Source: a virus
DNA: 64,000 nt
Strand: one strand, 5' to 3'
IMG/VR virus record: IMGVR_UViG_3300009550_000009
The notes below the pieces were generated by a model. The model had not been told where the DNA came from. It did not search any database and saw nothing but the letters and a program-made list of their open reading frames with translations. The translations under genes were made by a program, and so were the position numbers. Shown here in pieces: positions 3,113 through 31,496 of this stretch (within the stretch, counting starts at the first letter, position 1; each line of letters begins with the position of its first letter).

Positions 3113-3835
3113 ATGATTCATCTTGTAATTGGCACACCCATGTATGGTGGGATGTGCACTAGCGAATATACACAGTCATTATTAAACTTAAGTGAGGCAG
3201 CAAACAAGTCTGAGGGTGTCAAACTGACAACTATCTTTCTTGGCAATGAAAGTTTGATACAACGTGGGCGAAATACAATCGCACATCATTTCATGAATTT
3301 ACCTGATGCAACTCATCTATTATTCATTGATGCTGATATCAAGTTTCGCACTGAAGATATTGTGAAGATGATACAGGCAGATAAGTCTCTTATCATAGGC
3401 CCTGTTGCATTGAAAGGATACAACTGGAATGAGATTCGTCAGGCTGCAGTTAATGGTGAGGATGATATTGGAAGAACTGGTGGTGTATTTAACATCAATC
3501 ATCTTCCCGGAATTGATATGGTGGATGAAAATGAACCATTTGAAATTGAACATGGTGGTAATGCATTTATGATGATTCGTCGTGATTGTTTTGAGACTTT
3601 GAAACCCCATACTCCCATATATACTAATGGAGGAAGATCTCTACCTGACGGTGTAGAAATAAAAGACTACTTTCGTGTAGAGATAAATAAAAATACGAAT
3701 CATTTATTATCTGAAGATTATTTCTTCTGTCATTCATATCGACAAGTAGGTGGAAAAGTCTGGTGTGCTCCTTGGGTGGAGACTGGACATTTTGGTTCAC
3801 ATCTCTTTAATGGTAAATACACTAGGAACAATTAA
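3113..3835 (+). CDS. GT-A-fold glycosyltransferase-like protein
   Basis: IGTPMYGG, LLFIDADI (DxD) and LSEDYFFC motifs. Confidence 0.7.
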   Translation: MIHLVIGTPMYGGMCTSEYTQSLLNLSEAANKSEGVKLTTIFLGNESLIQRGRNTIAHHFMNLPDATHLLFIDADIKFRTEDIVKMIQADKSLIIGPVALKGYNWNEIRQAAVNGEDDIGRTGGVFNINHLPGIDMVDENEPFEIEHGGNAFMMIRRDCFETLKPHTPIYTNGGRSLPDGVEIKDYFRVEINKNTNHLLSEDYFFCHSYRQVGGKVWCAPWVETGHFGSHLFNGKYTRNN

Positions 3836-3840
3836 CGAAA

Positions 3841-4647: not shown

Positions 4648-4653
4648 TAATAT

Positions 4654-8959: not shown

Positions 8960-8967
8960 ATAATCAT

Positions 8968-13041: not shown

Positions 13042-13049
13042 ATATTAAT

Positions 13050-17575: not shown

Positions 17576-17620
17576 TGTGTTAATATACACTTATTGATAC
17601 CTGTAAAGTGTTTTTATAGT

Positions 17621-17728
17621 ATGAAACTAACTGGATCTGAAAAACTCGTCTTCATAATATCTTTTATGATGATGATGAACTGGGGTGTTCGTTTAGCACA
17701 ATCGTTTTTTAATTATGCTTTATTTTAG
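17621..17728 (+). CDS. 35-aa hydrophobic peptide, possibly leaderless
   Basis: MKLTGSEKLVFIISFMMMMNWGVRLAQSFFNYALF; ATG directly follows the repeat core. Confidence 0.5.
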   Translation: MKLTGSEKLVFIISFMMMMNWGVRLAQSFFNYALF

Positions 17729-18146
17729 TCACTCTGGATATGCTTACTCTAAAAAAAGATGTGAGAGCATTGTCAAATGGTTTGTTGAAAGATACTTACC
17801 AAATTATAAACTTGCAATTCATGTTGACCACAAAGGATTAGCAAGAGAGCATGTTGTAGGTTGGTGTTGGAACACCGATAGTAACTCAAGACCTCGTGAT
17901 TTTGAGATTGAGATAGATAATAGACAATGTGCAAAAAGTTACACAGAAACCCTCTTACATGAACTGTGGCACGTTAGACAACATGTCATGGGTGATTTAA
18001 AGAAAACAAGTAAAAAGAAGTTTTGGAAGGGCATAGACCACACTAACAAGTGGGATGATGATTATAACAGCCCATGGGAGTGGCAAGCAAGAGAAATGGA
18101 AACAGTTCTTTATAATCAGTATCATCGTATTTTCCCCTATAATTAA
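17715..18146 (+). CDS. HExxH zinc metallopeptidase-like protein
   Basis: TLLHELWHVRQ and downstream PWEWQA. Confidence 0.7.
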   Translation: MLYFSHSGYAYSKKRCESIVKWFVERYLPNYKLAIHVDHKGLAREHVVGWCWNTDSNSRPRDFEIEIDNRQCAKSYTETLLHELWHVRQHVMGDLKKTSKKKFWKGIDHTNKWDDDYNSPWEWQAREMETVLYNQYHRIFPYN

Positions 18147-18163
18147 ATTAAGGAGGTCATTTA

Positions 18164-18361
18164 ATGAAAGATCAAGGCAAAATTAAAGTTGATTCACCAT
18201 TTGAAAAATGGGACAGAGCAAAGAGTTTATTACTAGAATCTTTGTATAAACCTGATGTCGCATTGCGTTCTTGTTCACACAATCAACAATGTTTTCACGA
18301 AATGATTTCACTACGAGATCAAACTATTGAGTATGTTAGAAGTCTACCTAATCCACATTAG
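18164..18361 (+). CDS. hypothetical protein
   Basis: AAGGAGG RBS upstream. Confidence 0.75.
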   Translation: MKDQGKIKVDSPFEKWDRAKSLLLESLYKPDVALRSCSHNQQCFHEMISLRDQTIEYVRSLPNPH

Positions 18362-18496
18362 GTATTAACTCGTAGGCATAAATTTTTATTACGGATTAAT
18401 TGAAATTTGTTCATTTCCTCACTAAATAGTGATAGAATTAGGGAAGACAAGATGCACTAAAACTTCTTTGCTATTACTATTCTTGGAGAGAAAACC

Positions 18497-18670
18497 ATGC
18501 ACAATCTCGTATCTTACAATCAACTGGCTGGATGGAATAATATAGATAAGTCCCTTGACAGTTCAGTAGAACAAACGGAGATGGTTAACGACTATTTTAA
18601 TTGCCTTGTTGAATGTGATCTCAATGATGCTAATTCAAAACGATACTGTCGAAGTATTTTAACAAAATAA
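18497..18670 (+). CDS. 57-aa Cys-containing protein
   Basis: MHNLVSYNQLAGW...DYFNCLVECD...YCRSILTK; GGAG RBS; terminator downstream; below ORF-track cutoff. Confidence 0.75.
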   Translation: MHNLVSYNQLAGWNNIDKSLDSSVEQTEMVNDYFNCLVECDLNDANSKRYCRSILTK

Positions 18671-18676
18671 ACACAG

Positions 18677-18698
18677 ATCCCCGCAAGGGGATTTTTTA
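18677..18698 (+). terminator. intrinsic terminator
   Basis: ATCCCC-GCAA-GGGGAT followed by a T run. Confidence 0.85.
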
Positions 18699-18738
18699 AT
18701 GTTAGGAAACATAAATAAATGTAAATACAACTTAATAT

Positions 18739-18888
18739 ATGAATGATAAAAAGGCCGCTAAGACAATTATAAAAAGAGCAAGAGAAAATCCCAATTTGTA
18801 TTCAAAAGACGAGGTTAGTTATGCAAAAATGATTAAGAAACGAATTAAACAAAGAAAACTTCTTGACAAAAAAGAAGAAGTAGTCTAA
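18739..18888 (+). CDS. 49-aa basic protein
   Basis: MNDKKAAKTIIKRAREN...; ATAAATA at 18711. Confidence 0.65.
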   Translation: MNDKKAAKTIIKRARENPNLYSKDEVSYAKMIKKRIKQRKLLDKKEEVV

Positions 18889-18891
18889 AAT
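18863..18891 (+). promoter_or_regulatory. sigma70-type promoter
   Basis: TTGACA-N17-TAAAAT. Confidence 0.7.
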
Positions 18892-18914
18892 ATTATCATT
18901 ACAACACATTTTAG

Positions 18915-19217
18915 ATGTCTGATTATAAGGATTACGTTTTTAATCAATTAAATGAAATAATTGATCAAATAATTGAGGAAAAAGAAATTAAATCAAAAGA
19001 AACTTATGATGTCTTTTGTGATTCTTTGCAAAAAAATATTAATTATCATCGAGAGTGTATTGACAAGTGCAAGCAATTACTTTTATTAATGAACGCAGGA
19101 GAACCAAGAGTTACTTCTTATACTGGTGATGACCAATCCCCCGAAGCTAGACATGCGTGGGATGATTTTTGGAATAGTTTTACCCCCCCAAATTCAAAGG
19201 AGAAAGAAGATGATTAA
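18915..19217 (+). CDS. hypothetical protein
   Basis: 100-aa ORF after the promoter. Confidence 0.7.
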   Translation: MSDYKDYVFNQLNEIIDQIIEEKEIKSKETYDVFCDSLQKNINYHRECIDKCKQLLLLMNAGEPRVTSYTGDDQSPEARHAWDDFWNSFTPPNSKEKEDD

Positions 19218-19425
19218 TCTTGACGCTAGGTATCACGATTATTTACATAGTAAAAAAAAGATTTGTGTTGATGGAGTGGAGGAAAGTGTCAAGGCTTACG
19301 GATATAACTGTGACGGAAGTGATATTATAGGTTATTATATAACTACTAACTGCCATAAATTATATTATGATTTGCAAGAAAATTTTCTTCGCAAAGAGTT
19401 AGTATCTGATACCTCTAAAGTGTAA
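19210..19425 (+). CDS. hypothetical protein (start revised to MINLD)
   Basis: GGAG upstream of ATG 19210; C-terminus SDTSKV is encoded by a repeat copy. Confidence 0.7.
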   Translation: MINLDARYHDYLHSKKKICVDGVEESVKAYGYNCDGSDIIGYYITTNCHKLYYDLQENFLRKELVSDTSKV

Positions 19426-19427
19426 CT

Positions 19428-19568
19428 ATGTTAGTTGATTTAAAAAAACAAGAGATTGTGAAAATCTATCAAATTCTTAAAACTAAAAAAGAGGATGATG
19501 TGGTAGTTGATTACCTACATGATAGATTTAAAAAGTTAACCAAAATTTGCACTTGCGAGGAAACCTGA
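19428..19568 (+). CDS. 46-aa hypothetical protein
   Basis: MLVDLKKQEIVK...CTCEET; TGATG coupling to the next ORF. Confidence 0.6.
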   Translation: MLVDLKKQEIVKIYQILKTKKEDDVVVDYLHDRFKKLTKICTCEET

Positions 19569-19720
19569 TGACTGAAAAAGACCCTAAAACTGGATTGTGG
19601 AGACATCCCCAACCCATAAATGATACTGAGAAAATGATTGATGATTTTATTGCTGAGTGTGAAAAACAAGCAGCAAAATTAGAGGTCACAGTTGATTATT
19701 ACATTGCGGAATTTACTTAA
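19568..19720 (+). CDS. 50-aa hypothetical protein
   Basis: MTEKDPKTGLW...AAKLEVTVDYYIAEFT. Confidence 0.65.
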   Translation: MTEKDPKTGLWRHPQPINDTEKMIDDFIAECEKQAAKLEVTVDYYIAEFT

Positions 19721-19725
19721 CTATT

Positions 19726-19887
19726 ATGGAAAAACTTTACAGAATCGAAGAACTCACAACAGAGGGGTGGACACTCTTAGAGGATAAATCTCAAAAACTC
19801 ACAAAAGAAAAATGTGATGAATTACTGAGAAAATATCTAGATGGTGGTGCAAATCCGAATAGGTTACGAGCAGTCAATGACGTATGA
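19726..19887 (+). CDS. 53-aa hypothetical protein
   Basis: MEKLYRIEELTTEGW...GANPNRLRAVNDV. Confidence 0.7.
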   Translation: MEKLYRIEELTTEGWTLLEDKSQKLTKEKCDELLRKYLDGGANPNRLRAVNDV

Positions 19888-20227
19888 ACCAAAAGTAAAT
19901 GACTATGTTAAGTGGACAACAGCACTAGGCATGGTGCATGAGGGGTGGGTTTATTTTAAAGCACCCCCATCAGAGCATAAAAAGGGGTGGAGAAAACCAG
20001 AAAGGTATATCTCAATAGAAATTGCGACAAAACCAAGACGACAATGTGATATATCTACGTTTTTACATAAACGTATTCATGTATGTCTTTGTTGCTATGA
20101 GAATAATTGGCATGAATTAACCTATATTAGGAGAAGAGTTAGTAAACAAGATGATTCTGACCCTGATGAAGCAATAAGTTATGGTGCATATAAATCTCAA
20201 CAATACAGACCGCTTGATATTCAGTAA
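19877..20227 (+). CDS. hypothetical protein (start revised to MTYEP)
   Basis: In-frame ATG avoids a long overlap with 19726. Confidence 0.7.
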   Translation: MTYEPKVNDYVKWTTALGMVHEGWVYFKAPPSEHKKGWRKPERYISIEIATKPRRQCDISTFLHKRIHVCLCCYENNWHELTYIRRRVSKQDDSDPDEAISYGAYKSQQYRPLDIQ

Positions 20228-20268
20228 TTGATACCATTAAAATGTTTTAGTAATGAATTATTTGAATT

Positions 20269-20886
20269 ATGGCAGAAGTCCAACTACATGGAAATAACTT
20301 TGAAGATCTCAAAATTAGAGAACTCACAGGTTTAAGTAAAAAAGATTACGACTCTTTAAAAGGTAAGGGTGGATATACTTCCGCAATGGATTTGATTGAA
20401 GGTCTGATTGTTGATAAAAATTACAGTATCAAAACTGCGAAGGGAAACAAAGTTGATTGTGGAGATATTCTTAGAAGAATGAAAGAAGATAATTATACAA
20501 TTATTGTAGGTCAATGGTCACAAGATGGATTGCAGAAAATTTTTCATACTGAATACACATTTAATATAAAATCAGAGGATAAGGAAAAATTATGGGGTAA
20601 TATGAATTATGATGATGTTGTTTCATTCGATAAGTTTATTAAATCAATACCACATGGTAAAGAAGGACAGCAGACAACAAAAGAGGAGAGAGAAATTAGG
20701 AAGAATAAAATATCATGTGATAAAGCCCTCATGTCTATTCACCCAAAAGTAGATAGTAAAAATCAAAGAAGAGTTCAATGCTCATTTAAAATATCTGATT
20801 TGATAAAGTCAGGTATTGATTATCAAGCAAAAGCAATTAAATTTTCAATAGAGTCACCTTCTCGAACATTTAATAACAAAAACTGA
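20269..20886 (+). CDS. putative restriction-endonuclease-like nuclease
   Basis: HG..FE helix, then D...SIK, resembling a variant PD-(D/E)xK site; stop codon is the repeat TGA. Confidence 0.45.
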   Translation: MAEVQLHGNNFEDLKIRELTGLSKKDYDSLKGKGGYTSAMDLIEGLIVDKNYSIKTAKGNKVDCGDILRRMKEDNYTIIVGQWSQDGLQKIFHTEYTFNIKSEDKEKLWGNMNYDDVVSFDKFIKSIPHGKEGQQTTKEEREIRKNKISCDKALMSIHPKVDSKNQRRVQCSFKISDLIKSGIDYQAKAIKFSIESPSRTFNNKN

Positions 20887-20909
20887 TACCTCTAAAGTGT
20901 TTCAGTAGT

Positions 20910-21002
20910 GCGAGAACAAACCAACTTAAGACTTTCAAGGTAGCGGATACCCAAAGAAAAACGCTTTTAAATCGAACTTAAGCAGTTGAGTTTTGTTCTC
21001 GC
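20910..21002 (+). ncRNA. structured RNA candidate (long rod hairpin; sRNA or 5' leader)
   Basis: GCGAGAACAAA 20910-20920 pairs perfectly with TTTGTTCTCGC 20992-21002; inner CAACT/AGTTG, TAAG/CTTA, GGTA-GCGGA-TACC. Confidence 0.6.
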
Positions 21003-21028
21003 CCACCCAATAAAATCGCACAAAAATT

Positions 21029-21208
21029 ATGACATCATCTGAAGTATTACTTGAATTAAGAGAACTTAAGGAAGCATGGAAAAAACAAAATTTCGTGTTC
21101 AACGAAGGTCAACAGATAAGATATGATAATCTTCTTCAAAAACGTAGAGGTTTTGTCAAATCATGGTTTGAAAATGGTCTTGTCTATAAAAAAACCGCAT
21201 CTAAATAG
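21029..21208 (+). CDS. 59-aa hypothetical protein
   Basis: MTSSEVLLELRELKEAWKKQNF...; below ORF-track cutoff. Confidence 0.7.
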   Translation: MTSSEVLLELRELKEAWKKQNFVFNEGQQIRYDNLLQKRRGFVKSWFENGLVYKKTASK

Positions 21209-21229
21209 TATATAAGACATTTAGAGAAG

Positions 21230-21781
21230 ATGAAAACATTTCGGGAGTTTACAACAGAAGTTTATGACCCAGAGGTTCAAGGTCGTTCACAGATCCGCAA
21301 GATGGGTCAAGGTGGTCGTATTGGACAGGAGAGGAAAAAAACTGCTCCCGAAAAAAGGAGAATGAAGGCAGCTGGAGGTGGGAAGATGGTTCCAGCTAAA
21401 GATTATAAAGATCGCAAAGATATTGGTAAGGACAGAGCAAGATCAGAGAGAGAGCAACAACCAACTCAAACAAGAGGATCTGCAGCCCTTACACCTAGAG
21501 AACAACAAAAAAAAGCAAGAGCCGAGAGAATGGCAAGTAAATCGGGTAAGAAAACACCTAGAGAACTTGCGAAAGCGGCACAAAAGTTGTTACAAAAGAA
21601 AAAAGAAAAAAAAGTAGATCCAAAATATAAACCAGCAAAAGCAAGTGGATTAACGAGAGCAGAGAGACAGCAGATAAACAGAGCTGGTAAGAGATTAGTA
21701 AAAGATATGCAATCAGGTAAAGATAGACCAAGATCAGCATATGAGCCCGGAATGAGTGTTGCAATGAGAGGAAAAGAGTAG
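21230..21781 (+). CDS. basic protein with T4 capsid-targeting-like N-terminus (putative internal head protein)
   Basis: MKTFREFTTE; K/R-rich; CTAAATA late promoter at 21201. Confidence 0.6.
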   Translation: MKTFREFTTEVYDPEVQGRSQIRKMGQGGRIGQERKKTAPEKRRMKAAGGGKMVPAKDYKDRKDIGKDRARSEREQQPTQTRGSAALTPREQQKKARAERMASKSGKKTPRELAKAAQKLLQKKKEKKVDPKYKPAKASGLTRAERQQINRAGKRLVKDMQSGKDRPRSAYEPGMSVAMRGKE

Positions 21782-21882
21782 ATTTAGTATCATAAACTGA
21801 TACCACCAAATTGTTACTATTGTATATCACCATGGCAAATCTATTGTCATGTGGTATAATATTATTATATTATTGATTATTG

Positions 21883-23073
21883 ATGATTGAATTAAGACCA
21901 CATCAGAAGAGTGCTTTAGATGCTATGAGTGCATCAGATAAAGGACAGATCATAGTTCCTACTGGTGGTGGTAAAACTATGTGCATGATTGAAGATGTCA
22001 AGAGACAATTCAACAGTTCAGTAAATAAAACTGTTGTAGTTGTTGCACCTCGTATATTGCTTGCAAATCAATTATGTTCAGAGTTTTTAGAGCAGAATCT
22101 CGATAGTAACTATAATGTTGGTGTAGATGTGATTCATGTTCATAGTGGAGAGACACATTTTTACAGCACAACTAAGACTGATAAGATAAAGAAGTGGTAT
22201 CACAATAGCACCAAACATATTATTATGTTTACTACATACCATTCACTTCATAGAGTGCAAGAGAGTGGTATTCATGTAGATACAATATACTTTGATGAGT
22301 CACATAATGCAGTTCAAAAGAACTTCATTGAAGCAGTTGAGTATTTCTCAATGTATGCAGAGAGATCATACTTCTTTACTGCTACACCAAAACATTCACT
22401 TACACCTTTTAAAGTTGGAATGAATGATGTTGACATTTTTGGTCAAGTAATTTGCAATGTTCCTGCACCTAAATTAGTGAAGCAAGGTTATATATTACCA
22501 CCAAAAGTTGTTATTAACAAGATTGATTTACAAGATGATAGTAGATTTTCATACGAGCAAGATTGCGATTGTGTAATAGAAACTATTGATAATCAAGATG
22601 TGGATAAGATTTTAATTTGTGCAAGATCAACAAAACAAATTGTCAATTTAGTTACTCATACATCATTCATTCTTGATTTATATTCTCGTGGATATTCATG
22701 GATGATGATTACATCTAAAACTGGTGCAGTTATAGATGGTAAAAAAGTAAACAGAGAGGAGTTTTTCAATACGTTAAATACTTGGGGTAAAGATTCTGAT
22801 AAAAGATTTGTTGTATTACATCATAGTATATTATCTGAAGGTATCAATGTAAAAGGATTAGAAGCTGCTATGTTTCTAAGGAATATGGATTATATTGGTA
22901 TATCTCAAACTATTGGTAGAGTGATACGCAAAGGGGACGAGAGTAAAACATTTGGATTGATTTGTGTTCCAGTATATGATAAAGTTGGTATCTCTACTTC
23001 TCGTAGAGTTGAAGCAGTTGTCGATACTGTATTCAATCAGGGTCAGCCCGCAATTAGTGTAGTTAGGAATTAA
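21883..23073 (+). CDS. superfamily 2 (DExH) helicase
   Basis: PTGGGKT, DESH, TATP, LSEGINV and QTIGRVIR motifs. Confidence 0.9.
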   Translation: MIELRPHQKSALDAMSASDKGQIIVPTGGGKTMCMIEDVKRQFNSSVNKTVVVVAPRILLANQLCSEFLEQNLDSNYNVGVDVIHVHSGETHFYSTTKTDKIKKWYHNSTKHIIMFTTYHSLHRVQESGIHVDTIYFDESHNAVQKNFIEAVEYFSMYAERSYFFTATPKHSLTPFKVGMNDVDIFGQVICNVPAPKLVKQGYILPPKVVINKIDLQDDSRFSYEQDCDCVIETIDNQDVDKILICARSTKQIVNLVTHTSFILDLYSRGYSWMMITSKTGAVIDGKKVNREEFFNTLNTWGKDSDKRFVVLHHSILSEGINVKGLEAAMFLRNMDYIGISQTIGRVIRKGDESKTFGLICVPVYDKVGISTSRRVEAVVDTVFNQGQPAISVVRN

Positions 23074-23220
23074 ATGAAATACATTTTCAAAATAGACGAT
23101 TTTCAATTAACCGAAGACGAATATGATCTTTGGTCAGATAATCAATTATCAGTTCAAGAAATTTTGGACGATAGAATATCAAAAGATGAAATTAATATCT
23201 ATATTGATGTTAAGAACTGA
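23074..23220 (+). CDS. 48-aa acidic protein
   Basis: MKYIFKIDDF...IDVKN*; stop is the repeat TGA. Confidence 0.6.
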   Translation: MKYIFKIDDFQLTEDEYDLWSDNQLSVQEILDDRISKDEINIYIDVKN

Positions 23221-23257
23221 TACCTCTAAAATGTTTTAACAATGAATAAGCATTATT

Positions 23258-23473
23258 ATGAAAGTAAAAGAATTACTAAACATTTTGAGTGATGCCAAAC
23301 CTGATGATAACATCACTTTCTATTACTTGGAAAAAAACACTCTCGCTAATTCTACATTTGAATCATTCTTTGATTGCAACTATGTAGATGTAAATGGAGT
23401 TGTTGATTGGGAACTAACAGTTCAAAACACTATGGAATACTTAGAGGAGAACTCAGACAATGATGACAGTTAA
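23258..23473 (+). CDS. hypothetical cassette protein
   Basis: Follows repeat 23218. Confidence 0.75.
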   Translation: MKVKELLNILSDAKPDDNITFYYLEKNTLANSTFESFFDCNYVDVNGVVDWELTVQNTMEYLEENSDNDDS

Positions 23474-23621
23474 CATAAACGATTTTGTTACAGATGATGA
23501 ACTTTCACTTCTATGGAAGATTGCAGAGCGTATAATAAAGGAGGGGCATGTATATAATGACCCAGACTATAAAATCCAATTAAATCTTATTACTGAAACA
23601 TGGAGGCCTGATGAAAATTGA
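23460..23621 (+). CDS. 53-aa hypothetical protein
   Basis: MMTVNINDFVTDDELSLLWKIAE...; GAGGAG upstream. Confidence 0.6.
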   Translation: MMTVNINDFVTDDELSLLWKIAERIIKEGHVYNDPDYKIQLNLITETWRPDEN

Positions 23622-23817
23622 ACTTAACGAAAAAGAACAACAGTATCTTATTGATTCTATGATGTTCTATTCAACATTCATGCAGTATTTTAAAAATGAT
23701 AATCGAGGGTCATATTCTCGATTAATAAAACAGTATCAATACTGGTATGATAAAGACGATAGAAAAGAATGTCAACAAACATTTGAAAAAGTTTTGAGAG
23801 CAGATAAACAAAACTGA
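23611..23817 (+). CDS. hypothetical protein
   Basis: GGAGG RBS; stop is the repeat TGA. Confidence 0.75.
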   Translation: MKIELNEKEQQYLIDSMMFYSTFMQYFKNDNRGSYSRLIKQYQYWYDKDDRKECQQTFEKVLRADKQN

Positions 23818-23854
23818 TACCTCTAAATTGTTCCTACAGTAAGAGTTAATTATT

Positions 23855-24130
23855 ATGACAAACAGAAACAGCGATGCTCTCAATGAGCAAATACTAGAAA
23901 ATCTAACACCCGAACAACTACAAGAACTTAAAGAGTTGTATGTTGAGAGACTTGTTGATAATATGTCAACAAAAGATTTAGTTCGTTATGTCTTTGACGA
24001 TATGACACAATATGTTGATAAGCAATCACCTGTTGAGTTTTTTGATGATGCTTACAGTTACTTTGATGACTACTTTGATGAGATAGTCGAGGAAATCAAA
24101 GGCGGTCAATCTGTAAACAATTTAAACTAG
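23855..24130 (+). CDS. hypothetical cassette protein
   Basis: Follows repeat 23815. Confidence 0.8.
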   Translation: MTNRNSDALNEQILENLTPEQLQELKELYVERLVDNMSTKDLVRYVFDDMTQYVDKQSPVEFFDDAYSYFDDYFDEIVEEIKGGQSVNNLN

Positions 24131-24139
24131 GAGATCAAA

Positions 24140-24436
24140 ATGAATGAAGAACTTTACACAATTCAAATAACTCGTAGAGAGTTGGGATTAATCAAACATT
24201 ACTCTCATTTATTATTTGCAAATATTGATGATGATGTTTCATCTGATGGTGGTTCATGCACAGGCAGTTTTCCGATAGAAAAAGATTGGTTCGGTAAAGA
24301 TGCAATCAGAGGTCTTTATCGTAAAACAAAGAATATTGCAGATACTCATTATAATGATGATGAGGAATTGCAATTAGATAAAAGTTTAAGATACTCTACC
24401 AACATGAAATCTACATGGCCTTGGTTACAAAACTGA
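24140..24436 (+). CDS. hypothetical protein
   Basis: AGGAG RBS; stop is the repeat TGA. Confidence 0.75.
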   Translation: MNEELYTIQITRRELGLIKHYSHLLFANIDDDVSSDGGSCTGSFPIEKDWFGKDAIRGLYRKTKNIADTHYNDDEELQLDKSLRYSTNMKSTWPWLQN

Positions 24437-24474
24437 TACCTCTAAAATGTTCTTATAGTATAACACAAAACAAC

Positions 24475-24507
24475 ATGATTACAGCATTTTTTACAGGAGT
24501 ATTCTAA
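24475..24507 (+). pseudogene. truncated copy (MITAFFTGVF*) of gene 26142
   Basis: 24430-24500 matches 26097-26167 at 70/71 nt. Confidence 0.8.
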
Positions 24508-24791
24508 TGACAATGACCGCAAAAGAGTTTATGCAAGAAGTTTACGAAATTGCATTTGGACATGAAGCATACTACAGAGGATTTTTTCCAGAGGAAGTTG
24601 TCGAGAGACTACAAGATTTTTCAGATGGATCAAATCCAATTCTTATTGAAGATGCTTATAATGAGATAGAAGAATTAAAAACTTCACTTACAGAACTAAG
24701 TGATGCAGACCTATTAAATTCCAGACAAGCTCTTATTAATCAAACAAATAGAGTTATGGAAGCATTAAATGAAATAGGAACTGATGAATAA
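24507..24791 (+). CDS. hypothetical protein
   Basis: 94 aa; TAATG-coupled to the remnant. Confidence 0.75.
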   Translation: MTMTAKEFMQEVYEIAFGHEAYYRGFFPEEVVERLQDFSDGSNPILIEDAYNEIEELKTSLTELSDADLLNSRQALINQTNRVMEALNEIGTDE

Positions 24792-24839
24792 TAATATTAT
24801 TGATACCTCTAAATTGTTCCTTTATTAGATTATGAAATT

Positions 24840-25757
24840 ATGAAAAACACACACCTTGAACACCCCGAAGATTCCATTCTAACTGGTGATCTTACCGCAC
24901 TTGATTGGATGTCTGAAAAGAACAGTCATATATCAGTCAAGATTGATGGAAGTCCAGCTATCGTATGGGGACGTAACCCTGCAACTGGAAATCAATTTGT
25001 TGGAACTAAATCTGTATTCAACAAAAAGTTAATTAAGATATGCGAATCAATCGAGGATATTGATAAGTTTTATAGTGGTGATTTGCGTGACATATTAACA
25101 AATTGTTTTGTTAATTTACCTATCACAAAAAACATTTATCAAGGTGATTTCATCGGGTTTGGTGGTAATTATTCTTACACACCTAATACAATTACATATA
25201 AGTTTGACCGTATTATATCACAAAGAATAATAATTGCACCACATACTGTTTATGAATCACAAAAAGATTTGCGTGATGCAGTTGCAAACCCTCTTTTAAA
25301 TAATCTATCATCTACAACAAATGTTTTATTTGTATCACCTGATTGTGGTATAGTTAATGACAATGAGTTAATTAAATTACAGGTTAATTTTGCTAAACAA
25401 ATGGCAACATTATGTGAGTTCCCAACAGAAAACAAAGTAATTGCACGTTTAAAAAAACAGATTAATACATGTATTCGTGAGGGAATTGAATTAGATGAAT
25501 TAACACAAGATGCACTTGCTAATGATAACGAAGTTGACTTAAATGTTATTAGATTGTGGAAATTAGTGGAAGCAATTAAGATTCAATTGTTTACATATAT
25601 TCATGTAGATGAGAGTATTGAATGTGAAATAGAGAACCATAATGTTGACCATGAAGGTTATGTAATGACCAACAAATTCGGTTCATTTAAGATTGTAGAT
25701 CGAGAGGTATTTTCATTCTTAAATTTCAATCTTTCAAAAAATCGTGATACAAACTGA
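24840..25757 (+). CDS. putative ligase-superfamily nucleotidyltransferase
   Basis: KIDG, YQGDF, HEGYV and FKIV match ligase motifs I, III, IV, V in order; stop is the repeat TGA. Confidence 0.5.
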   Translation: MKNTHLEHPEDSILTGDLTALDWMSEKNSHISVKIDGSPAIVWGRNPATGNQFVGTKSVFNKKLIKICESIEDIDKFYSGDLRDILTNCFVNLPITKNIYQGDFIGFGGNYSYTPNTITYKFDRIISQRIIIAPHTVYESQKDLRDAVANPLLNNLSSTTNVLFVSPDCGIVNDNELIKLQVNFAKQMATLCEFPTENKVIARLKKQINTCIREGIELDELTQDALANDNEVDLNVIRLWKLVEAIKIQLFTYIHVDESIECEIENHNVDHEGYVMTNKFGSFKIVDREVFSFLNFNLSKNRDTN

Positions 25758-25806
25758 TACCTCTAAAATGTTCCTATAGTAAGAATTGAATTATTTTTTC
25801 AAAACA

Positions 25807-26061
25807 ATGACTGACGAAATTTTATCACTAGAGTTTGGAAGAACATTTTGGTTAGATGAAGATGGAGAGTTACGTTCTGCACCAACTTTCAAAAATGGTG
25901 AAACCGATTATGAAAAGTGGGATTATGTATCAGAGTGGCAAGATCTTGAAGGTATCAATCTTGATGCTTTACTCAACATTCATAAAAATTTAGTTATTAA
26001 AAACTATATTGAGACCACTGAAAAGTTTAATTTTAGATACCAAGTTTTAAAAGGAGCATAA
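25807..26061 (+). CDS. hypothetical cassette protein (start revised to ATG)
   Basis: Follows repeat 25755. Confidence 0.75.
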   Translation: MTDEILSLEFGRTFWLDEDGELRSAPTFKNGETDYEKWDYVSEWQDLEGINLDALLNIHKNLVIKNYIETTEKFNFRYQVLKGA

Positions 26062-26065
26062 CATC

Positions 26066-26125
26066 ATGTCATTAAATACACCACATAACGTAACACAAAC
26101 TGATACCTCTAAAATGTCCTTATAG
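26066..26125 (+). pseudogene. 5' remnant of a paralog of gene 26938, running into a repeat
   Basis: MSLNTPHNVTQT vs MTINTPFNVTLT (29/38 nt identical); AAGGAG RBS. Confidence 0.6.
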
Positions 26126-26141
26126 TATAACACAAAACAAC

Positions 26142-26375
26142 ATGATTACAGCATTTTTTACAGGAGTTGTCGTAGCAATTCCAACTTCACTTATTACAAT
26201 GAAGTTACTAAACAGTTCACTTTTTATCAGTAATGAAGAATTAAGGGAAGCAAACGCTAAAATTAGTCTCATTATTAATAACTTAGATGACTTCAGAGAA
26301 GAGAGACTTGCCGATAAAATGGAGAGACTTGGCATAACTGATAAACTTGATAAGAGACTTGAAATAAAAAATTAA
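26142..26375 (+). CDS. small protein with N-terminal hydrophobic helix
   Basis: Follows repeat 26101. Confidence 0.75.
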   Translation: MITAFFTGVVVAIPTSLITMKLLNSSLFISNEELREANAKISLIINNLDDFREERLADKMERLGITDKLDKRLEIKN

Positions 26376-26427
26376 TACATCAACTGATACCTTTAAACTG
26401 TTCCTATAGTATAAGATCAAATTAATT

Positions 26428-26667
26428 ATGAAAAAATCATTTATTGTTGAAGATGTAACAGCAAACTTAGACAAGATCACTTGTTTAACTGATGAAATAA
26501 TAGAGGGTATTAATTTTAGATGCCTTAATGCTATTGGTGTATGGCATACAGAAGGTAATGATGCAGAAGGAGATTTATGGGATAAAGTTGAAGCATATAT
26601 TGGTGTTCCTTTAGGTGGTTTAACATACTGTAAAAATCAACCACACAAACTTACTTCTTTTAAGTAA
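26428..26667 (+). CDS. hypothetical cassette protein
   Basis: Follows repeat 26385. Confidence 0.8.
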   Translation: MKKSFIVEDVTANLDKITCLTDEIIEGINFRCLNAIGVWHTEGNDAEGDLWDKVEAYIGVPLGGLTYCKNQPHKLTSFK

Positions 26668-26710
26668 GTGATACCTCTAAATTGTCCCTTATATGTAAGA
26701 CTTATTAAAA

Positions 26711-26938
26711 ATGCCACTTAAAAAAGAAATTTTTGATCGAATCACTCAAGAACGAGAAACATTTATGAACGAGCAACGAGCAAACGAGGAACTCAATATT
26801 GAGTTAGAATATGAGAGAGTCAAGGAGCAACGCTACAAGGCCTTTCAAGAGTGGTTAAACGATTGTCCACTTGTAGTAACTGACTATCAAGATTTTACAA
26901 CTGAATTTCAAATTACTTTCAATCTGGAGGCTGACTAA
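26711..26938 (+). CDS. hypothetical cassette protein
   Basis: Follows repeat 26669. Confidence 0.75.
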   Translation: MPLKKEIFDRITQERETFMNEQRANEELNIELEYERVKEQRYKAFQEWLNDCPLVVTDYQDFTTEFQITFNLEAD

Positions 26939-27183
26939 TGACTATCAACACACCATTTAATGTAACACTAACTGAAGGCCAAATAGGTATTATCTTATGC
27001 AGTTTAGAGGATAGTGTTAAAAAAAGTGAGCATATCAGAAGTAAAGACAATATAATATTACAACCATTTGATGAATATTGTCAATCAGTTGACTCTATTT
27101 TTGAAATTTTAGAGGGTGTAGTTGATAGGCATTATGATAAGATAGAAAAGGCTCAAAGTAAACAACCAGAAATGGAATGGTAA
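26938..27183 (+). CDS. hypothetical protein
   Basis: GGAGG RBS; TAATG coupling. Confidence 0.75.
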   Translation: MTINTPFNVTLTEGQIGIILCSLEDSVKKSEHIRSKDNIILQPFDEYCQSVDSIFEILEGVVDRHYDKIEKAQSKQPEMEW

Positions 27184-27233
27184 TAATAATTGATACCTTT
27201 AAAATGTTCCTATAGTATAAGATCAAATTAATT

Positions 27234-27476
27234 ATGCACAACTTCAAAGAATTTTTAGACTACTGCGAATCATTCTACATGCCTAGTCATCCTGACGTAT
27301 TATACCCTATTGATGGATTATCTAGGGGAGAGTTAGCACTTGCTACTCTTACATATCTTGATTTATGTTCAGAATGTGAGTCAATCAACTGGGGTGATGG
27401 TGATTCCTTAGATCGAGAGAGAGTCAGGGATCAGGTATTTCAAACTAGAGCAGTAAATTCAGTTAGTCTTAATTAA
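27234..27476 (+). CDS. hypothetical cassette protein
   Basis: Follows repeat 27191; WGDGDSLDRERVRD. Confidence 0.8.
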   Translation: MHNFKEFLDYCESFYMPSHPDVLYPIDGLSRGELALATLTYLDLCSECESINWGDGDSLDRERVRDQVFQTRAVNSVSLN

Positions 27477-27528
27477 TACTAACTGATACCTCTAAAATGT
27501 TCCTATAGTATAAGCAAACATCAAAATT

Positions 27529-27717
27529 ATGAAAATGACAAAAGTTGAAGTAGTTGCATCATTCAGAGAATCATGGGCTGACGTTGTTGCATCTGATCCT
27601 ATGTGGAGAGGAGACAAGATCGCCAAAAGATGTGCATTTAATGATTTTGTTGATATGCTTAACAAAGATGGCATGGTAACAGATCATCAAGCAAACAACT
27701 GGAGCAATCCATTTTAA
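27529..27717 (+). CDS. hypothetical cassette protein
   Basis: Follows repeat 27484. Confidence 0.8.
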   Translation: MKMTKVEVVASFRESWADVVASDPMWRGDKIAKRCAFNDFVDMLNKDGMVTDHQANNWSNPF

Positions 27718-27770
27718 TTGACTCAAACTGATACCTCTAAACTGTTCCTATAGTATAAGCAATCAAAAAA

Positions 27771-27947
27771 ATGTCAACATTACATCACGAATCATTATTA
27801 GAAACTTGCTTTGATGAAGCAGTCGAAGCATTTTGTTCTCACAATCAGTTAACGCCAGAAATGTTTGCTGAGATAGAGCATCATCAAGGAGTTCAAATAG
27901 CATTGGAAAATGCTGCAAACCAAAGATTTGAGGATTTATTACAATGA
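27771..27947 (+). CDS. 58-aa cassette protein
   Basis: MSTLHHESLLETCFDEAVE...; follows repeat 27729; ATGA overlap with the next ORF; missed by the ORF track. Confidence 0.8.
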   Translation: MSTLHHESLLETCFDEAVEAFCSHNQLTPEMFAEIEHHQGVQIALENAANQRFEDLLQ

Positions 27948-28135
27948 AAAATGACCAAGAAATTCTAAACAATGTTGAAATTCTAAGCAAATATCATATT
28001 GATAGATTCCAACATTTATTAGACAATGATCGAAAAGATGACGCAATTTCAATCATGCAAGAATATGTAAGTAAAGGAGAAGTTGAAGATGACGATTATC
28101 AATGGTTATATGTAAATTATCTTTTTAAAAACTGA
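27944..28135 (+). CDS. hypothetical protein
   Basis: Stop is the repeat TGA. Confidence 0.75.
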   Translation: MKNDQEILNNVEILSKYHIDRFQHLLDNDRKDDAISIMQEYVSKGEVEDDDYQWLYVNYLFKN

Positions 28136-28176
28136 TACCTCTAAAATGTTCCTATAGTAAGCAATCCAATTAAATT

Positions 28177-28377
28177 ATGACCAGAAAAGAATACGAATTA
28201 GTTTTCCAAGCATTAAAATCTTATAGATGCTACATGAGCAGAGAAGATGAAGCATTATCTGAAAAAATTCTAGATGATTTATTCTATCCTAGTTTTGATA
28301 AACTATCAACTGATGATTTAGTAGCAGATGCAGAGGAAGCACTTAAAAATGAAGTTAAAAGTTTGAATTTTAGATAA
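28177..28377 (+). CDS. hypothetical cassette protein
   Basis: Follows repeat 28133. Confidence 0.8.
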   Translation: MTRKEYELVFQALKSYRCYMSREDEALSEKILDDLFYPSFDKLSTDDLVADAEEALKNEVKSLNFR

Positions 28378-28427
28378 TTCAAACTGATACCTCTAAACTG
28401 TTCCTATAGTATAAGACAAACAAAATT

Positions 28428-28871
28428 ATGACCACACTTGAAACAACTGATCTAAAAACAAGAGTTGCAGAATGGACTCAAACCTATGCAAATGCAATTA
28501 CTCAAAATTATAGAGAGTATCATCTAAATATGCTCACCAGACAAGGCCACCCATATCCAGAGTATGCGAAGCAGCAGTTAGATGAAATTGACAATGGAAC
28601 AGCGAACCTAATGAAGTTCAAAGTTAAAACTGGTAAGAGATATTACAAAATTGTCCAGATGGAATTTGACACTTTCCAGAATCGCAACGAATATAGGGAA
28701 GGATCAGTTCATGCTTTTGTTGATCGCAATACTGGAGAAGTTTTCAAACCAGCATCATGGGCAGCACCAGCAAAGCATGTAAGATATGATATGAGAATTA
28801 TTAGAGAGAGAAATTTCTTACATGATCCCTCTAATGTAACATGGGCAGGTGGTTATCTCTACATGAGATAA
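28428..28871 (+). CDS. hypothetical cassette protein
   Basis: Follows repeat 28385; HAFVD..TG.V.KPASW.APAK.VRY motif. Confidence 0.85.
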   Translation: MTTLETTDLKTRVAEWTQTYANAITQNYREYHLNMLTRQGHPYPEYAKQQLDEIDNGTANLMKFKVKTGKRYYKIVQMEFDTFQNRNEYREGSVHAFVDRNTGEVFKPASWAAPAKHVRYDMRIIRERNFLHDPSNVTWAGGYLYMR

Positions 28872-28924
28872 TCACTAATTGATACCTCTAAAATGTTTCT
28901 ATAGTATAAGATACAATTCACATT

Positions 28925-29134
28925 ATGACTAAAACTCAAACAATCATCAACAGAATACTTGAAGTAGATAACTTTCAAAATATGGCATGCTGTTGTGCTA
29001 ATTGGCAAGAGTTTACTCAAGAGTTAGAAGAGTGGGGAGTTACTGGATGTGCAAAAATCGAATTTGATGATCCAGAGTTACATATCCCTATGTTAGACCA
29101 GTTTATCAAATCTGAGAATGGTTACATCAGATAA
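28925..29134 (+). CDS. hypothetical cassette protein
   Basis: Follows repeat 28880. Confidence 0.8.
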   Translation: MTKTQTIINRILEVDNFQNMACCCANWQEFTQELEEWGVTGCAKIEFDDPELHIPMLDQFIKSENGYIR

Positions 29135-29195
29135 TTAACTCAAACTGATACCTTTAAAATGTTCCTATAGTATAAGCAATCAATCAATTCACATC

Positions 29196-29528
29196 ATGAG
29201 AAAAATCGAAACCCAAATGAATCAAGCAATCAGAGGACAGAGAAACTGGGCAGGTTCAAATACAACAGTCTTTACTGATGATGCAGGTTTATATTCTACA
29301 GTTTACTTGCATGGCAATAAAATTGCTTCATACTCTCATGTAACTAGAGACTTAGAAATTTTAGATGGCGGTTGGCAATCTAACACCACAAAGTCTAGAT
29401 TAAATGCACTTCTCTCAGAGTTCAAACCTGCATTTGGTGTATTTCAAAAAAACTGGCAGTGGTTTATTTCAGACCGCCTAAACAATAAAGTTTTTCCTTT
29501 CATATCAGGAGGTTTAATTACTTCTTAA
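29196..29528 (+). CDS. hypothetical cassette protein
   Basis: Follows repeat 29146; GGWQSNTTKSRLNAL. Confidence 0.85.
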   Translation: MRKIETQMNQAIRGQRNWAGSNTTVFTDDAGLYSTVYLHGNKIASYSHVTRDLEILDGGWQSNTTKSRLNALLSEFKPAFGVFQKNWQWFISDRLNNKVFPFISGGLITS

Positions 29529-29534
29529 TTAACT

Positions 29535-29572
29535 GGAAGTATTACGGATTAATTCTATAATACTTCCTTTTT
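29535..29572 (+). terminator. intrinsic terminator
   Basis: GGAAGTATTA/TAATACTTCC 10-bp stem plus T run. Confidence 0.7.
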
Positions 29573-29699
29573 ATTTTCTCTCGTTAGTTATTAATGGGCC
29601 TCCGCAATTCTCTTCCTTACGAGATGCGAAAGCGATTTTTTAATTAACACTAACTGAAACCCCCAAACTGTTATTATTGTATAGGATTATTTTTTTATT

Positions 29700-29804
29700 A
29701 TGGAACTTTTCATTTTACTAGGCGGGTGTTATGCACTTTATACTGTAGGCATGGCAATCGCAACAGAAATTGACTATCGAAATCAAATCGACAAAAATAA
29801 GTAA
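29700..29804 (+). CDS. 34-aa membrane peptide
   Basis: MELFILLGGCYALYTVGMAIATEID...; follows repeat 29655. Confidence 0.65.
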   Translation: MELFILLGGCYALYTVGMAIATEIDYRNQIDKNK

Positions 29805-29859
29805 CACTTACTGATACCTGTAAACTGTTACTATAGTATCAGAGACAAAAAACATTATT

Positions 29860-30018
29860 ATGAACAATTCAAAACTTGAAATCGTAAGATCATTTTTCAC
29901 AGACAGTGAGTGGGATGCTATCGACTCCGCACTTGCTGATTATCAAGATTACGGAGATAATCAAGCAGAGTTAGCATCACAAATTGGTGATAAGATTTAC
30001 AATCTATTTAATAATTAA
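29860..30018 (+). CDS. 52-aa cassette protein
   Basis: MNNSKLEIVRSFFTDSEWDAID...; follows repeat 29812. Confidence 0.75.
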   Translation: MNNSKLEIVRSFFTDSEWDAIDSALADYQDYGDNQAELASQIGDKIYNLFNN

Positions 30019-30031
30019 GGAGCATAATTTG

Positions 30032-30172
30032 ATGTCTTATTCTACAAAAGATTTTAACAAAGATGTTGATAAGTTACGCAAATTAATTGAAAAATGTGAA
30101 CAATTAGAAGAGCAACAAAATGCAGTAAGATTATACAAACCTTTTCGCAATTTAAACAACTATTTAAACTAA
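30032..30172 (+). CDS. 46-aa protein (start revised to MSYST)
   Basis: AAGGAG RBS. Confidence 0.6.
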   Translation: MSYSTKDFNKDVDKLRKLIEKCEQLEEQQNAVRLYKPFRNLNNYLN

Positions 30173-30175
30173 ACT

Positions 30176-30340
30176 ATGCAGACCTTAACTCACACTAATT
30201 ACAACGAAATTCTACGTCTTTATAACAACGAAAGTAAGGATGAGATAGTAACACAAACTACCTACGAATTTCAAATTTTTGATGATTATTATTATCAGTT
30301 ATTTCACAGTTATTATGAAACAAATAAGGGGGCAAATTAA
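30176..30340 (+). CDS. 54-aa hypothetical protein
   Basis: MQTLTHTNYNEILRLYNN...; abuts its neighbours. Confidence 0.55.
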   Translation: MQTLTHTNYNEILRLYNNESKDEIVTQTTYEFQIFDDYYYQLFHSYYETNKGAN

Positions 30341-30508
30341 ATGATTATTTCTATCACAAAAAGGATTAAATTACCCTCTGGAAAGTATAAGAAACGTGTC
30401 AAATATTCAACTGTAAAGTATCAAATAGAGAAGGTAAAACCAAGAAGATCGCATTATAAATTAAGTAGTTTACATGCTGCTAAGTATCATTTAGTAAGAG
30501 AGAGTTAA
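30341..30508 (+). CDS. 55-aa basic protein
   Basis: MIISITKRIKLPSGKYKKRVK... Confidence 0.5.
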   Translation: MIISITKRIKLPSGKYKKRVKYSTVKYQIEKVKPRRSHYKLSSLHAAKYHLVRES

Positions 30509-30644
30509 TCTGTTAGTTTTACACAATATAGAGGTAATTCTGTGGAAAACTTATTTAATTGTGGAAAAGAATGTATTTAAAAATATATTTAAGCGTTTTA
30601 TTTCTCGATTTAATGTTAGATTTTATAGTGATCTTAGCGAGCGT

Positions 30645-30673
30645 ATTATACCACGAACGCCCGAAAATTGCAA
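30645..30673 (-). promoter_or_regulatory. minus-strand sigma70-type promoter
   Basis: Reverse complement reads TTGCAA-N17-TATAAT with an extended -10 TG. Confidence 0.65.
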
Positions 30674-30712
30674 GGGGCGGATAATACTTTTGTCAGAACT
30701 TACGCATAATTA

Positions 30713-30741
30713 TTGACAAGAATTATGAAATAATATACAAT
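30713..30741 (+). promoter_or_regulatory. sigma70-type promoter
   Basis: TTGACA-N17-TACAAT. Confidence 0.75.
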
Positions 30742-30757
30742 GGTTATATAACACTTA

Positions 30758-30940
30758 ATGGCTGCACAGTTTATGACAATTTCCGCGTCTAATTTACAGC
30801 AAAAACAGTATCGAATTACGCTGAATTTGTCAGTTCAAAGTGACTTTAATCCCCATCAAATTAACTATGAAAAGTTATTCAAATTAGATGAGGATTTGGA
30901 AGCCCTAAGTGTAACAATTGAGGACTTAAATTATGAGTAG
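30758..30940 (+). CDS. hypothetical protein
   Basis: 60-aa ORF downstream of the promoter. Confidence 0.7.
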   Translation: MAAQFMTISASNLQQKQYRITLNLSVQSDFNPHQINYEKLFKLDEDLEALSVTIEDLNYE

Positions 30941-31004
30941 TTAGTGTTAGTTTTCCACAGCTGTTATATAACATTATATGAAACCTGTAAAGTGTTCTTA
31001 TAGT

Positions 31005-31157
31005 GTAGGGAGCAGAGATAGTGAAGAGGGAGACGCGAAGGTTAAGGAGGTTTAAAAAACCATTATTCCAAAACTTCGTTAGTGCGCACTTAGTCCCACT
31101 CTTGCAATGCGGAGCTCCGCCTCTAGTTTAAGTGACTAGATGTAAGTATCCCTACCA
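31005..31157 (+). ncRNA. multi-stem structured RNA candidate
   Basis: Closing stem GTAGGGA/TCCCTAC; AAGAG/CTCTT, CGAAG/CTTCG, TCTAGT/ACTAGA; GC-rich, no credible ORF; starts right after repeat 30979. Confidence 0.6.
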
Positions 31158-31318
31158 GTCTTTTAACAGTCCGTTACGTGATATAGCAGTTATATGCGGG
31201 CGTTGTTGTTATGGGGGCGGGCGCGATGCCGTTTTAAAAAACCCTTAAGTCCCTAACCTACAGAGGTGACAAATCGATAGCTAAATATTAAACCATATTA
31301 AATTTTTTTTTCTTGGCC

Positions 31319-31429
31319 ATGGGAACACACTACGGATTCACAATAATTGTATGGGTTATAATTGGGTTAATAATATTTTCCAAGTTAGATAGTGGGGGCA
31401 AAAAGAAAAAGAAACGCAAAAACAAATAA
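31319..31429 (+). CDS. 36-aa membrane peptide with Lys tail
   Basis: MGTHYGFTIIVWVIIGLIIFSKLDSGGKKKKKRKNK; CTAAATA at 31281. Confidence 0.6.
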   Translation: MGTHYGFTIIVWVIIGLIIFSKLDSGGKKKKKRKNK

Positions 31430-31438
31430 AAAATTTCC

Positions 31439-31460
31439 GGGGGCTCAAAACCCCCTTTTT
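31439..31460 (+). terminator. intrinsic terminator
   Basis: GGGGG-CTCAAAA-CCCCC-TTTTT. Confidence 0.75.
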
Positions 31461-31496
31461 AGTGTTTTCTAAATACTAATAACATGATTTAAACAC

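Follow-up and report, generated by a model that had tools for sequence, protein, structure and literature searches.

A repeated element, most likely an early-gene start signal, at the seams of a small-gene array in an uncultured T4-like cyanophage

What does a virus gain from placing one short element, in one orientation, before every unit of a long run of small and mostly unfamiliar genes? The question is raised by a 64,000-nucleotide stretch of viral DNA (IMG/VR record IMGVR_UViG_3300009550_000009; hereafter the window), in which a 26-nt element recurs 23 times between positions 17595 and 31004. Judged by DNA and protein comparison, the window is that of a T4-like cyanomyovirus of the Kyanoviridae type, with only distant similarity at the DNA level to sequenced isolates. 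T4-like cyanophages are among the most abundant viruses of the ocean and the start of their infection programme is poorly understood; they lack the Alt/Mod and MotA/AsiA proteins of T4 (PMC2984593). The original prediction for this locus was that one motif acts both as expression signal and as recombination joint. Our analysis indicates that an uncultured T4-like virus infecting marine cyanobacteria most likely uses the repeats as its private start signal for early genes, and that the repeats probably double as patches of homology at which promoter-plus-gene units are exchanged.

The element is sharply defined. The simple pattern TGAWACC-N18-T has 32 matches in the 64-kb window against 6.4 expected. 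A 34-column weight matrix was built from the 23 copies (aaC, the 26 nucleotides and ATAAG) and scanned over both strands at a low threshold; it returned exactly the 23 plus-strand copies already listed; the rest of the 64 kb gave no match, and neither did the minus strand. No copies were found in the other 50 kb of the window nor in the remaining 69 kb of the relative G001. The predicted copy number, strand, spacing (157–1812 bp), constant length without indels and invariant columns (TGAwACC, AAA, TGT and the final T) were thus all confirmed. The extended consensus of the 23 copies is aaCTGATACCTCTAAAnTGTTCCTATAGTATAAG. All copies are co-oriented with the genes and sit between an upstream stop codon and a downstream ATG. 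The preceding open reading frame (ORF) mostly ends 0–19 nt before the copy, and in six copies the TGA of the motif is itself the stop codon. The first ATG is mostly 13–24 nt downstream of the copy and the start codons lack Shine-Dalgarno sequences. The element takes up nearly all of the intergenic space of the array. As had been predicted, it contains no stem-loop: the DNA of the motif region folds at −1 to −2.2 kcal/mol (z +0.4 to +1.2), weaker than shuffled sequence on both strands. Fold and terminator scans revealed no stem-loop beside the motif on either strand, and the two terminator-like sites of the array region do not adjoin a copy.

Comparison with other cyanophages divides the element in two, a half that is private (TGATACC) and a core that some of them share (CCTCTAAAnTG). 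The part common to the lineages is CC-TC-TAAAnT-G(T); the 5–7 nt before it are constant within one genome and vary from lineage to lineage. The core ACCTCTAAAnTG is found 13 times in P-TIM68, always within 47.2–56.1 kb of its 197 kb, in an element of the form AAATGTTAGTTACCTCTAAATTGA...TTAATG, and there the motif heads anti-restriction, helicase and other small genes. SynMITS9220M01 has 12 copies in the syntenic region (element AATGTTACTCACCTCTAAAGTGTCCCTATAGT). The two phages are in culture, on Prochlorococcus MIT9515 and Synechococcus MIT S9220, respectively. Two metagenomic contigs, L152 and L158, carry the core behind a GTGAGCC box (4 copies) and a TGTAGCC box (3 copies), respectively. In the lineages bearing it, the core is present in multiple copies on one strand, and only in the region of small genes that precedes the baseplate module. 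It is absent from Syn9, P-TIM40, P-HM2, P-SSM2, P-SSM4, P-RSM4, MbCM1 and Bellamy; in S-SCSM1 a related, looser pattern has just two matches, both on the minus strand and apparently due to chance. A BLAST search of phage records with one 39-nt copy gave chance matches except for SynMITS9220M01. No description of the CCTCTAAAnTG core was found in the literature searched.

Position and strand of the element, together with synteny, favour the predicted role as an expression signal before each unit. In P-HM2 a measured early cluster, PHM2_056–074, lies directly upstream of g25/g6/g7 (S2 Table, PMC5082946). Two window ORFs (23855–24130 and 27771–27947), both headed by the motif, are homologues of the early genes PHM2_062 and PHM2_064. 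It is homology and synteny with the P-HM2 cluster that suggest early transcription of the array genes. A second line of evidence comes from a structured RNA (20910–21002), described below. It follows the present element in the window, L152 and L158, and it follows canonical −10 hexamers (TATATT or TATAAT) in P-RSM4, S-TIM4 and many contigs; in P-RSM4 and S-TIM4, TTGACA is also found 17 nt upstream of the −10. Because the same RNA sits behind either, the present element and canonical promoters appear interchangeable before the same cargo. Conservation in the element is concentrated in a TAAAnT box and the bases immediately before it; within the box, the A of position 11 and the T of position 15 never vary and match the two key bases of a −10 hexamer. 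From these comparisons we infer promoter activity, early timing and an approximate start site.

Other kinds of signal were considered. TATAGT, at positions 21–26, varies among the 23 copies and is not kept in P-TIM68, L152 or L158, and a T7-type promoter (CTATAG) was dropped for that reason. A T4 late promoter was dropped since the core lacks TATAAATA and the P-HM2 homologues are early. NtcA (GTA-N8-TAC), Pho-box and sigma-54-type readings, compared by eye, misfit in spacing and bases across the lineages.

The start of transcription probably falls between motif positions ~21 and 27. Sigma-70 geometry, counted from TAAAnT, predicts a start near positions 21–23. Position 27 is indicated by a different set of features. 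Base 26 is always T and base 27 is a purine, and the segment from TAAAnT to position 27 is 11 nt in every copy. In three lineages whose private boxes differ, position 27 is the first base of the closing helix of the structured RNA; where the RNA has a canonical promoter, this helix starts exactly 7 nt past the −10 hexamer. Position 27 of the motif is, in copy 1, also where the ATG of a conserved 35-aa ORF begins. Transcription from position 27, if true, would be a geometry that no standard sigma factor explains.

Whether the copies are also seams was addressed with 12 related contigs found by motif scan, most of them short-read metagenome contigs. Four clean indels relative to the window have both borders in copies, with junctions inside 39, 32, 32 and 49 shared nt (window 25743–25781/26089–26127, 27188–27219, 27726–27757 and 23215–23263, respectively). 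When contigs are split at the copies, many cassettes align over their full length, motif to motif. Order changes as well as content. Contig L126 and the Sanger-read GOS scaffold L128 have the order w16-w17-w14-w15 where the window has w14-w15-w16-w17. Cassette w18 lies between x6 and x7 in L127 and L131, and L129 reads w18-x5-x6-x7. The first ORF of window cassette 13 is located seven cassettes earlier in genomes of the L001 type, whose overall arrangement was seen in five contigs, from different samples. Successive cassettes differ sharply in their identity to the window, with values from 71% to 99%; the 11.6 kb that follow the array are 98.8% identical. Overall, 25 of 41 unique similarity ends fall within 20 nt of a copy, against an expectation of 12.4% (p ~3e-13), with crossover points ranging from −13 to +32 nt relative to the element, within the shared sequence and beyond it. 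Compared with isolates, gene order in the array is heavily shuffled relative to P-TIM68 and mostly collinear with SynMITS9220M01. The comparison of cassettes between relatives did not reveal collinear genomes broken at sites unrelated to the element. Motif-to-motif indels, the changed order in L128 and the enrichment of breakpoints all argue for the recombination joint that had been proposed.

We note a duplication within the window itself. Copy 8 and the first 25 nt of an ORF (24430–24500) duplicate copy 11 and the start of ORF 26142 (26097–26167). The ORF starting at 24475 is truncated after the duplicated stretch, which resembles a crossover scar just downstream of the motif.

We consider it probable that the copies are early-class promoters which double as homology patches for general recombination. 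Each copy would comprise the lineage-private box TGATACC, the core CC-TC-TAAAnT-G and a fixed 11-nt segment with the invariant T as its last base and a purine next to it. Transcription by host RNA polymerase would start inside or right after the element, at positions ~21–27, and a factor recognising the private box may assist. The products would be mRNAs with short leaders and no Shine-Dalgarno sequence, plus at least one small structured RNA. Since the same 34–50 nt precede every unit in direct orientation, they would offer homology patches for phage recombination. Unequal or inter-genome crossovers within copies would then delete, insert, duplicate or reorder promoter-plus-gene units, and the units would stay expressed. 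Ordinary homologous recombination would be sufficient for this; no site-specific machinery is indicated.

A more far-reaching account joins the two functions. The private half would be read by a co-evolving, phage-encoded specificity factor, possibly delivered with the virion, so that each lineage owns its early code; transcription would start at position 27 with a non-sigma-70 geometry, and recombination would keep the code uniform while shuffling the cargo. We regard this account as tentative and rather doubtful. If true, it would add a class to the promoters that bacterial RNA polymerase uses, and co-infecting phages would avoid expressing each other's early genes.

Several observations weigh against the promoter-and-homology-patch reading. 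There is no conserved −35 and the geometry is not that of sigma-70; a sigma-70 consensus scan picks out just a TTGATA variant at 17594 and not the copies. The two placements of the start site disagree by ~5 nt. By our own tally, about 15 of 23 motif junctions carry a breakpoint compared with about 5 of 19 gene junctions without a motif, a moderate contrast. Contig L035 has precisely lost 17722–18144 (ORF 17715–18146), a deletion unrelated to the element, and further breakpoints away from it occur at 26941 and in 30.0–30.4 kb. Selection for units that stay intact and expressed could account for part of the breakpoints at the element, and metagenome assemblers could switch between strains at the best-conserved 34 nt.

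Taken together, these last points raise an alternative in which the element is a promoter only, and the coincidence of borders and copies arises from selection and assembly chimeras with no mechanistic role in recombination. Selection alone would put breakpoints near the element because the element fills almost all of the intergenic space, so that any breakpoint respecting genes falls near a copy. Breakpoints are also seen at gene junctions without a motif and inside genes, and the relatives are mostly short-read metagenome contigs, both as this alternative would have it. It has to reckon, however, with the four indel junctions inside 32–49 shared nt, which are the signature of a crossover between direct repeats. 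An assembly artefact sits poorly with the recurrence of the L001-type order in five contigs of different samples, the changed order in L126 and in the Sanger GOS scaffold L128, and the differing order in isolates. Circle formation between repeated early promoters has moreover been shown experimentally in T4-type phages (PMC2839356). Recombination, rather than selection alone, probably lies behind the coincidence of borders and copies, and we judge the promoter-only alternative unlikely.

The element might instead act in RNA, as a processing site or a translation-initiation leader within one long transcript of the array. Such a role would suit an unstructured region (z > 0 on both strands) just before start codons that lack Shine-Dalgarno sequences, and read-through transcripts are likely because the array region has only two terminators. 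Yet the same RNA gene stands behind the element in three lineages and behind a canonical −10 at the matching position in others, the element's upstream half extends into the coding sequence and stop codons of preceding genes, and the invariant bases fit a −10 hexamer. We give an RNA-level role little credence. Least credible of all is that the copies are attC-like sites of a dedicated site-specific recombinase encoded outside the window; fixed length, single orientation and cassette-like units that are gained and lost would fit, but dyad symmetry and hairpins are absent on both strands, no recombinase was found among the array and flanking ORFs tested, crossover points are spread from −13 to +32 nt, and the upstream half differs by lineage while the promoter-like core stays.

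The coordinates of the array, the 23 copies and the principal cargo are collected in Table 1.

Table 1. Features of the small-gene array (window coordinates)
Feature	Coordinates	Strand	Remarks
Whole array	17595..31004	+	23 putative promoter-type repeats heading 23 units; ~41 small ORFs, 1 confirmed and 1 candidate RNA
Motif copy 1	17595..17620	+	next base is the ATG of the conserved 35-aa ORF
Conserved 35-aa ORF	17621..17728	+	ATG at motif position 27 of copy 1
Motif copy 2	19407..19432	+	weight matrix
Motif copy 3	20229..20254	+	lowest matrix score
Motif copy 4	20884..20909	+	heads structured RNA; TGA is the stop codon of ORF 20269-20886
Structured RNA, ~93 nt	20910..21002	+	begins at first base after copy 4; 8-bp closing helix and inner hairpin
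Motif copy 5	21798..21823	+	CAAATT variant; upstream of helicase gene
Helicase gene (ResIII/DEAD)	21880..23073	+	sole array gene with a recognisable enzymatic fold
Motif copy 6	23218..23243	+	extra cassette in L081 here; junction within 49 shared nt
Motif copy 7	23815..23840	+	heads ORF 23855-24130, homologue of P-HM2 early gene PHM2_062
Motif copy 8	24434..24459	+	end of collinearity with L001-type genomes, which have an extra cassette
Motif copy 9	24801..24826	+	upstream of DUF6267 gene
Motif copy 10	25755..25780	+	left border of cassette missing in L001-type genomes
Motif copy 11	26101..26126	+	right border of cassette missing in L001-type genomes; junction within 39 shared nt
Motif copy 12	26385..26410	+	weight matrix
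Motif copy 13	26669..26694	+	first ORF at another array position in L001-type genomes
Motif copy 14	27191..27216	+	1.6-kb two-cassette insertion in L001-type genomes; 32 shared nt
Motif copy 15	27484..27509	+	weight matrix
Motif copy 16	27729..27754	+	heads ORF 27771-27947, homologue of P-HM2 early gene PHM2_064; extra cassette in L001
Motif copy 17	28133..28158	+	weight matrix
Motif copy 18	28385..28410	+	upstream of DUF7717 gene
Motif copy 19	28880..28905	+	weight matrix
Motif copy 20	29146..29171	+	upstream of Kyano_Gp96 gene
Motif copy 21	29655..29680	+	TGAAACC, CAAACT variant
Motif copy 22	29812..29837	+	heads six small ORFs
Motif copy 23	30979..31004	+	TGAAACC; heads 300-nt non-coding stretch, 38-aa membrane-type ORF and terminator
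Candidate second RNA	31005..31165	+	behind copy 23; z -1.6, 10/200 shuffles fold as well; weakly supported
Intrinsic terminator closing array	31439..31462	+	GGGGGCTCAAAACCCCC then T run; strong

The structured RNA behind copy 4 is the best-characterised cargo. Its fold has a z score of −3.3 and none of 200 shuffled sequences was as stable. Unannotated DNA of P-RSM4 and S-TIM4 matches it at 88% identity, although the neighbouring genes have no DNA similarity to these phages. Sixteen distinct versions were collected. The closing helix occurs in four variants (GCGAGAAC, ACGAAAAC, GUCGAAAC and GAGAAAAC), each perfectly complementary to its partner strand, and the inner hairpin also covaries, with a loop of 6 to ~70 nt. 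This central hairpin tolerates inserts of up to ~60 nt. The RNA is conserved in P-RSM4, S-TIM4, MbCM1, a P-HM2 variant and 25 viral contigs, and it matches no Rfam family; permissive Rfam scans of both RNA regions gave chance-level matches only. Kept across several cyanophage genera, it readily qualifies as a candidate for a new family of phage RNAs. The prediction that some units carry structured RNA thus holds for the unit at 20884, through stability and covariation. For the unit at 30979 support is weak (Table 1), the sole relative of the second RNA being near-identical. The whole stretch 31011–31462, when folded, is no more stable than shuffled sequence (z +1.85). We note that the non-coding block at 31187–31290 contains a 27-nt stretch, CCTAACCTACAGAGGTGACAAtTCGA, that recurs unchanged or almost unchanged in unannotated stretches of SynMITS9220M01, Bellamy and S-SCSM1; covariation was not found in this block. 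The 38-aa ORF at 31313–31429 has a hydrophobic core and a lysine-rich tail, with the strong terminator, here placed at 31439–31455, directly after it.

The array occupies a small-gene region between genes on the tail-fibre side and purM/gp25/gp6/gp7. On its downstream side are purM and the baseplate genes gp25, gp6 and gp7; the upstream side has genes for 2OG-Fe(II) oxygenase and radical-SAM proteins and a family of 12 paralogues. P-TIM68 and SynMITS9220M01 share this layout, with ~40 small hypothetical genes just before the baseplate module. The cargo genes are small and unrelated, as predicted: the ~41 array ORFs, compared with each other, include no paralogues. A Pfam scan covered 40 of the window's ORFs, from the array and its flanks. 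A ResIII/DEAD helicase, DUF6267, DUF7717, DUF7326 and Kyano_Gp96 were recognised in the array, the other genes having no family. No integrase, Cas, reverse-transcriptase or recombinase domain was found among these 40 ORFs, the largest array ORFs included, which agrees with the prediction. tRNA and Rfam scans of the window gave no matches. The cargo had been proposed to consist of host-takeover genes. The recognisable ones are limited to a helicase and four domains of unknown function, and takeover remains conjecture.

Two further observations concern ORFs of the window. The hydrophobic 35-aa ORF at copy 1 (MKLTGSEKLVFII...NWGVRL...) is also found at 42216–42323 of P-TIM68, where it is unannotated. 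At 121–15187 the window has 15 head-to-tail ORFs of 240–392 aa, 12 of which are mutual paralogues (31–50% identity) with internal repeats; Pfam returned no match for the 15. They are followed, in order, by a 2OG-Fe(II) oxygenase, a radical-SAM/SPASM protein and a second 2OG-Fe(II) oxygenase.

The array would represent a sharply defined early signal of a second type in T4-like cyanophages, made of a shared core and a lineage-private half. Natural variants show this signal as a place where small early genes are swapped. This would link gene regulation to the turnover of 'dark matter' genes, those most likely to meet host defences. Its importance would rise if transcription proves to start at position 27, or if the phage turns out to encode its own reader of the private box.

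Three known systems invite comparison. Like integron attC arrays, the locus is a one-directional series of small unrelated genes, bounded by repeats and variable in content between relatives. attC sites are imperfect palindromes which fold and are cut by IntI, and integron cassettes are promoterless. The present element is by contrast unstructured and promoter-like, and no integrase was identified among the ORFs scanned. The analogy therefore fails on both defining features tested, the integrase and the folding site. The integron-like platform of the original prediction is not upheld: there is no dyad or hairpin, no recombinase among the ORFs scanned, and several breakpoints lie away from the element.

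The second system is an early element of other cyanophages. Syn9, P-HM2 and P-RSM4 have a different box, of the TTAGTGGCACA/GTGTCCAC or GTGGCACA/GTGTCCAC type, ~30 nt upstream of a TATAAT-like −10. An element of the TTAGTGGCACA/GTGTCCAC type heads the early genes of P-HM2 (L133, 36.4–41.4 kb) and of Syn9 (L004, 43–49 kb); the P-HM2 early cluster is split into two divergent arms. Doron et al. reportedly described, in 2016, an early-gene regulatory element of T4-like cyanophages that heads clustered small early genes, and we take the TTAGTGGCACA/GTGTCCAC-type box to be that element. The present element would resemble it in heading clustered small early genes, in its position in the cyanomyovirus genome and in departing from the T4 paradigm. 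The two differ in sequence: the TTAGTGGCACA/GTGTCCAC-type element of Syn9, P-HM2 and P-RSM4 shares none with the present core, and the palindrome-type box (GTGGCACA/GTGTCCAC) is not visible in the 23 copies.

The closest known system is that of the PeSL (promoter-early stem-loop) cassettes of the T4-type phages RB49/phi1, T4/PST and KVP40/nt-1 (Arbiol et al. 2010, PMC2839356; Comeau et al. 2014, PMC4122927). In these phages, recombination between repeated early promoters in hyperplastic regions gives rise to indels, replacements and mini-circles (PMC2839356, PMC4122927). With such recombination already published, the claim that the array is the window's best candidate for a novel system is not supported. 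As in PeSL phages, repeated elements are found here among small non-essential genes in a hyperplastic region of a T4-type myovirus; close relatives differ at the elements by insertions, deletions and replacements, and no dedicated recombinase is indicated. Unlike PeSL, the present element has no terminator stem-loop half, upstream stop codons lying 0–19 nt before or inside most copies; its promoter is not of the TTGACA-N17-TATAAT type, and its upstream half is private to each lineage. The element is thus PeSL-like in action and not a strict member. A PeSL mechanism was judged unlikely for the cyanophage S-PM2 (PMC4503421), and for this reason promoter-bounded shuffling in cyanomyoviruses adds something to what is known. 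Phage promoters that double as recombination seams are a known kind; what is new here is the absence of a terminator half, a non-canonical promoter with a lineage-private box, and a host that is a marine cyanobacterium.

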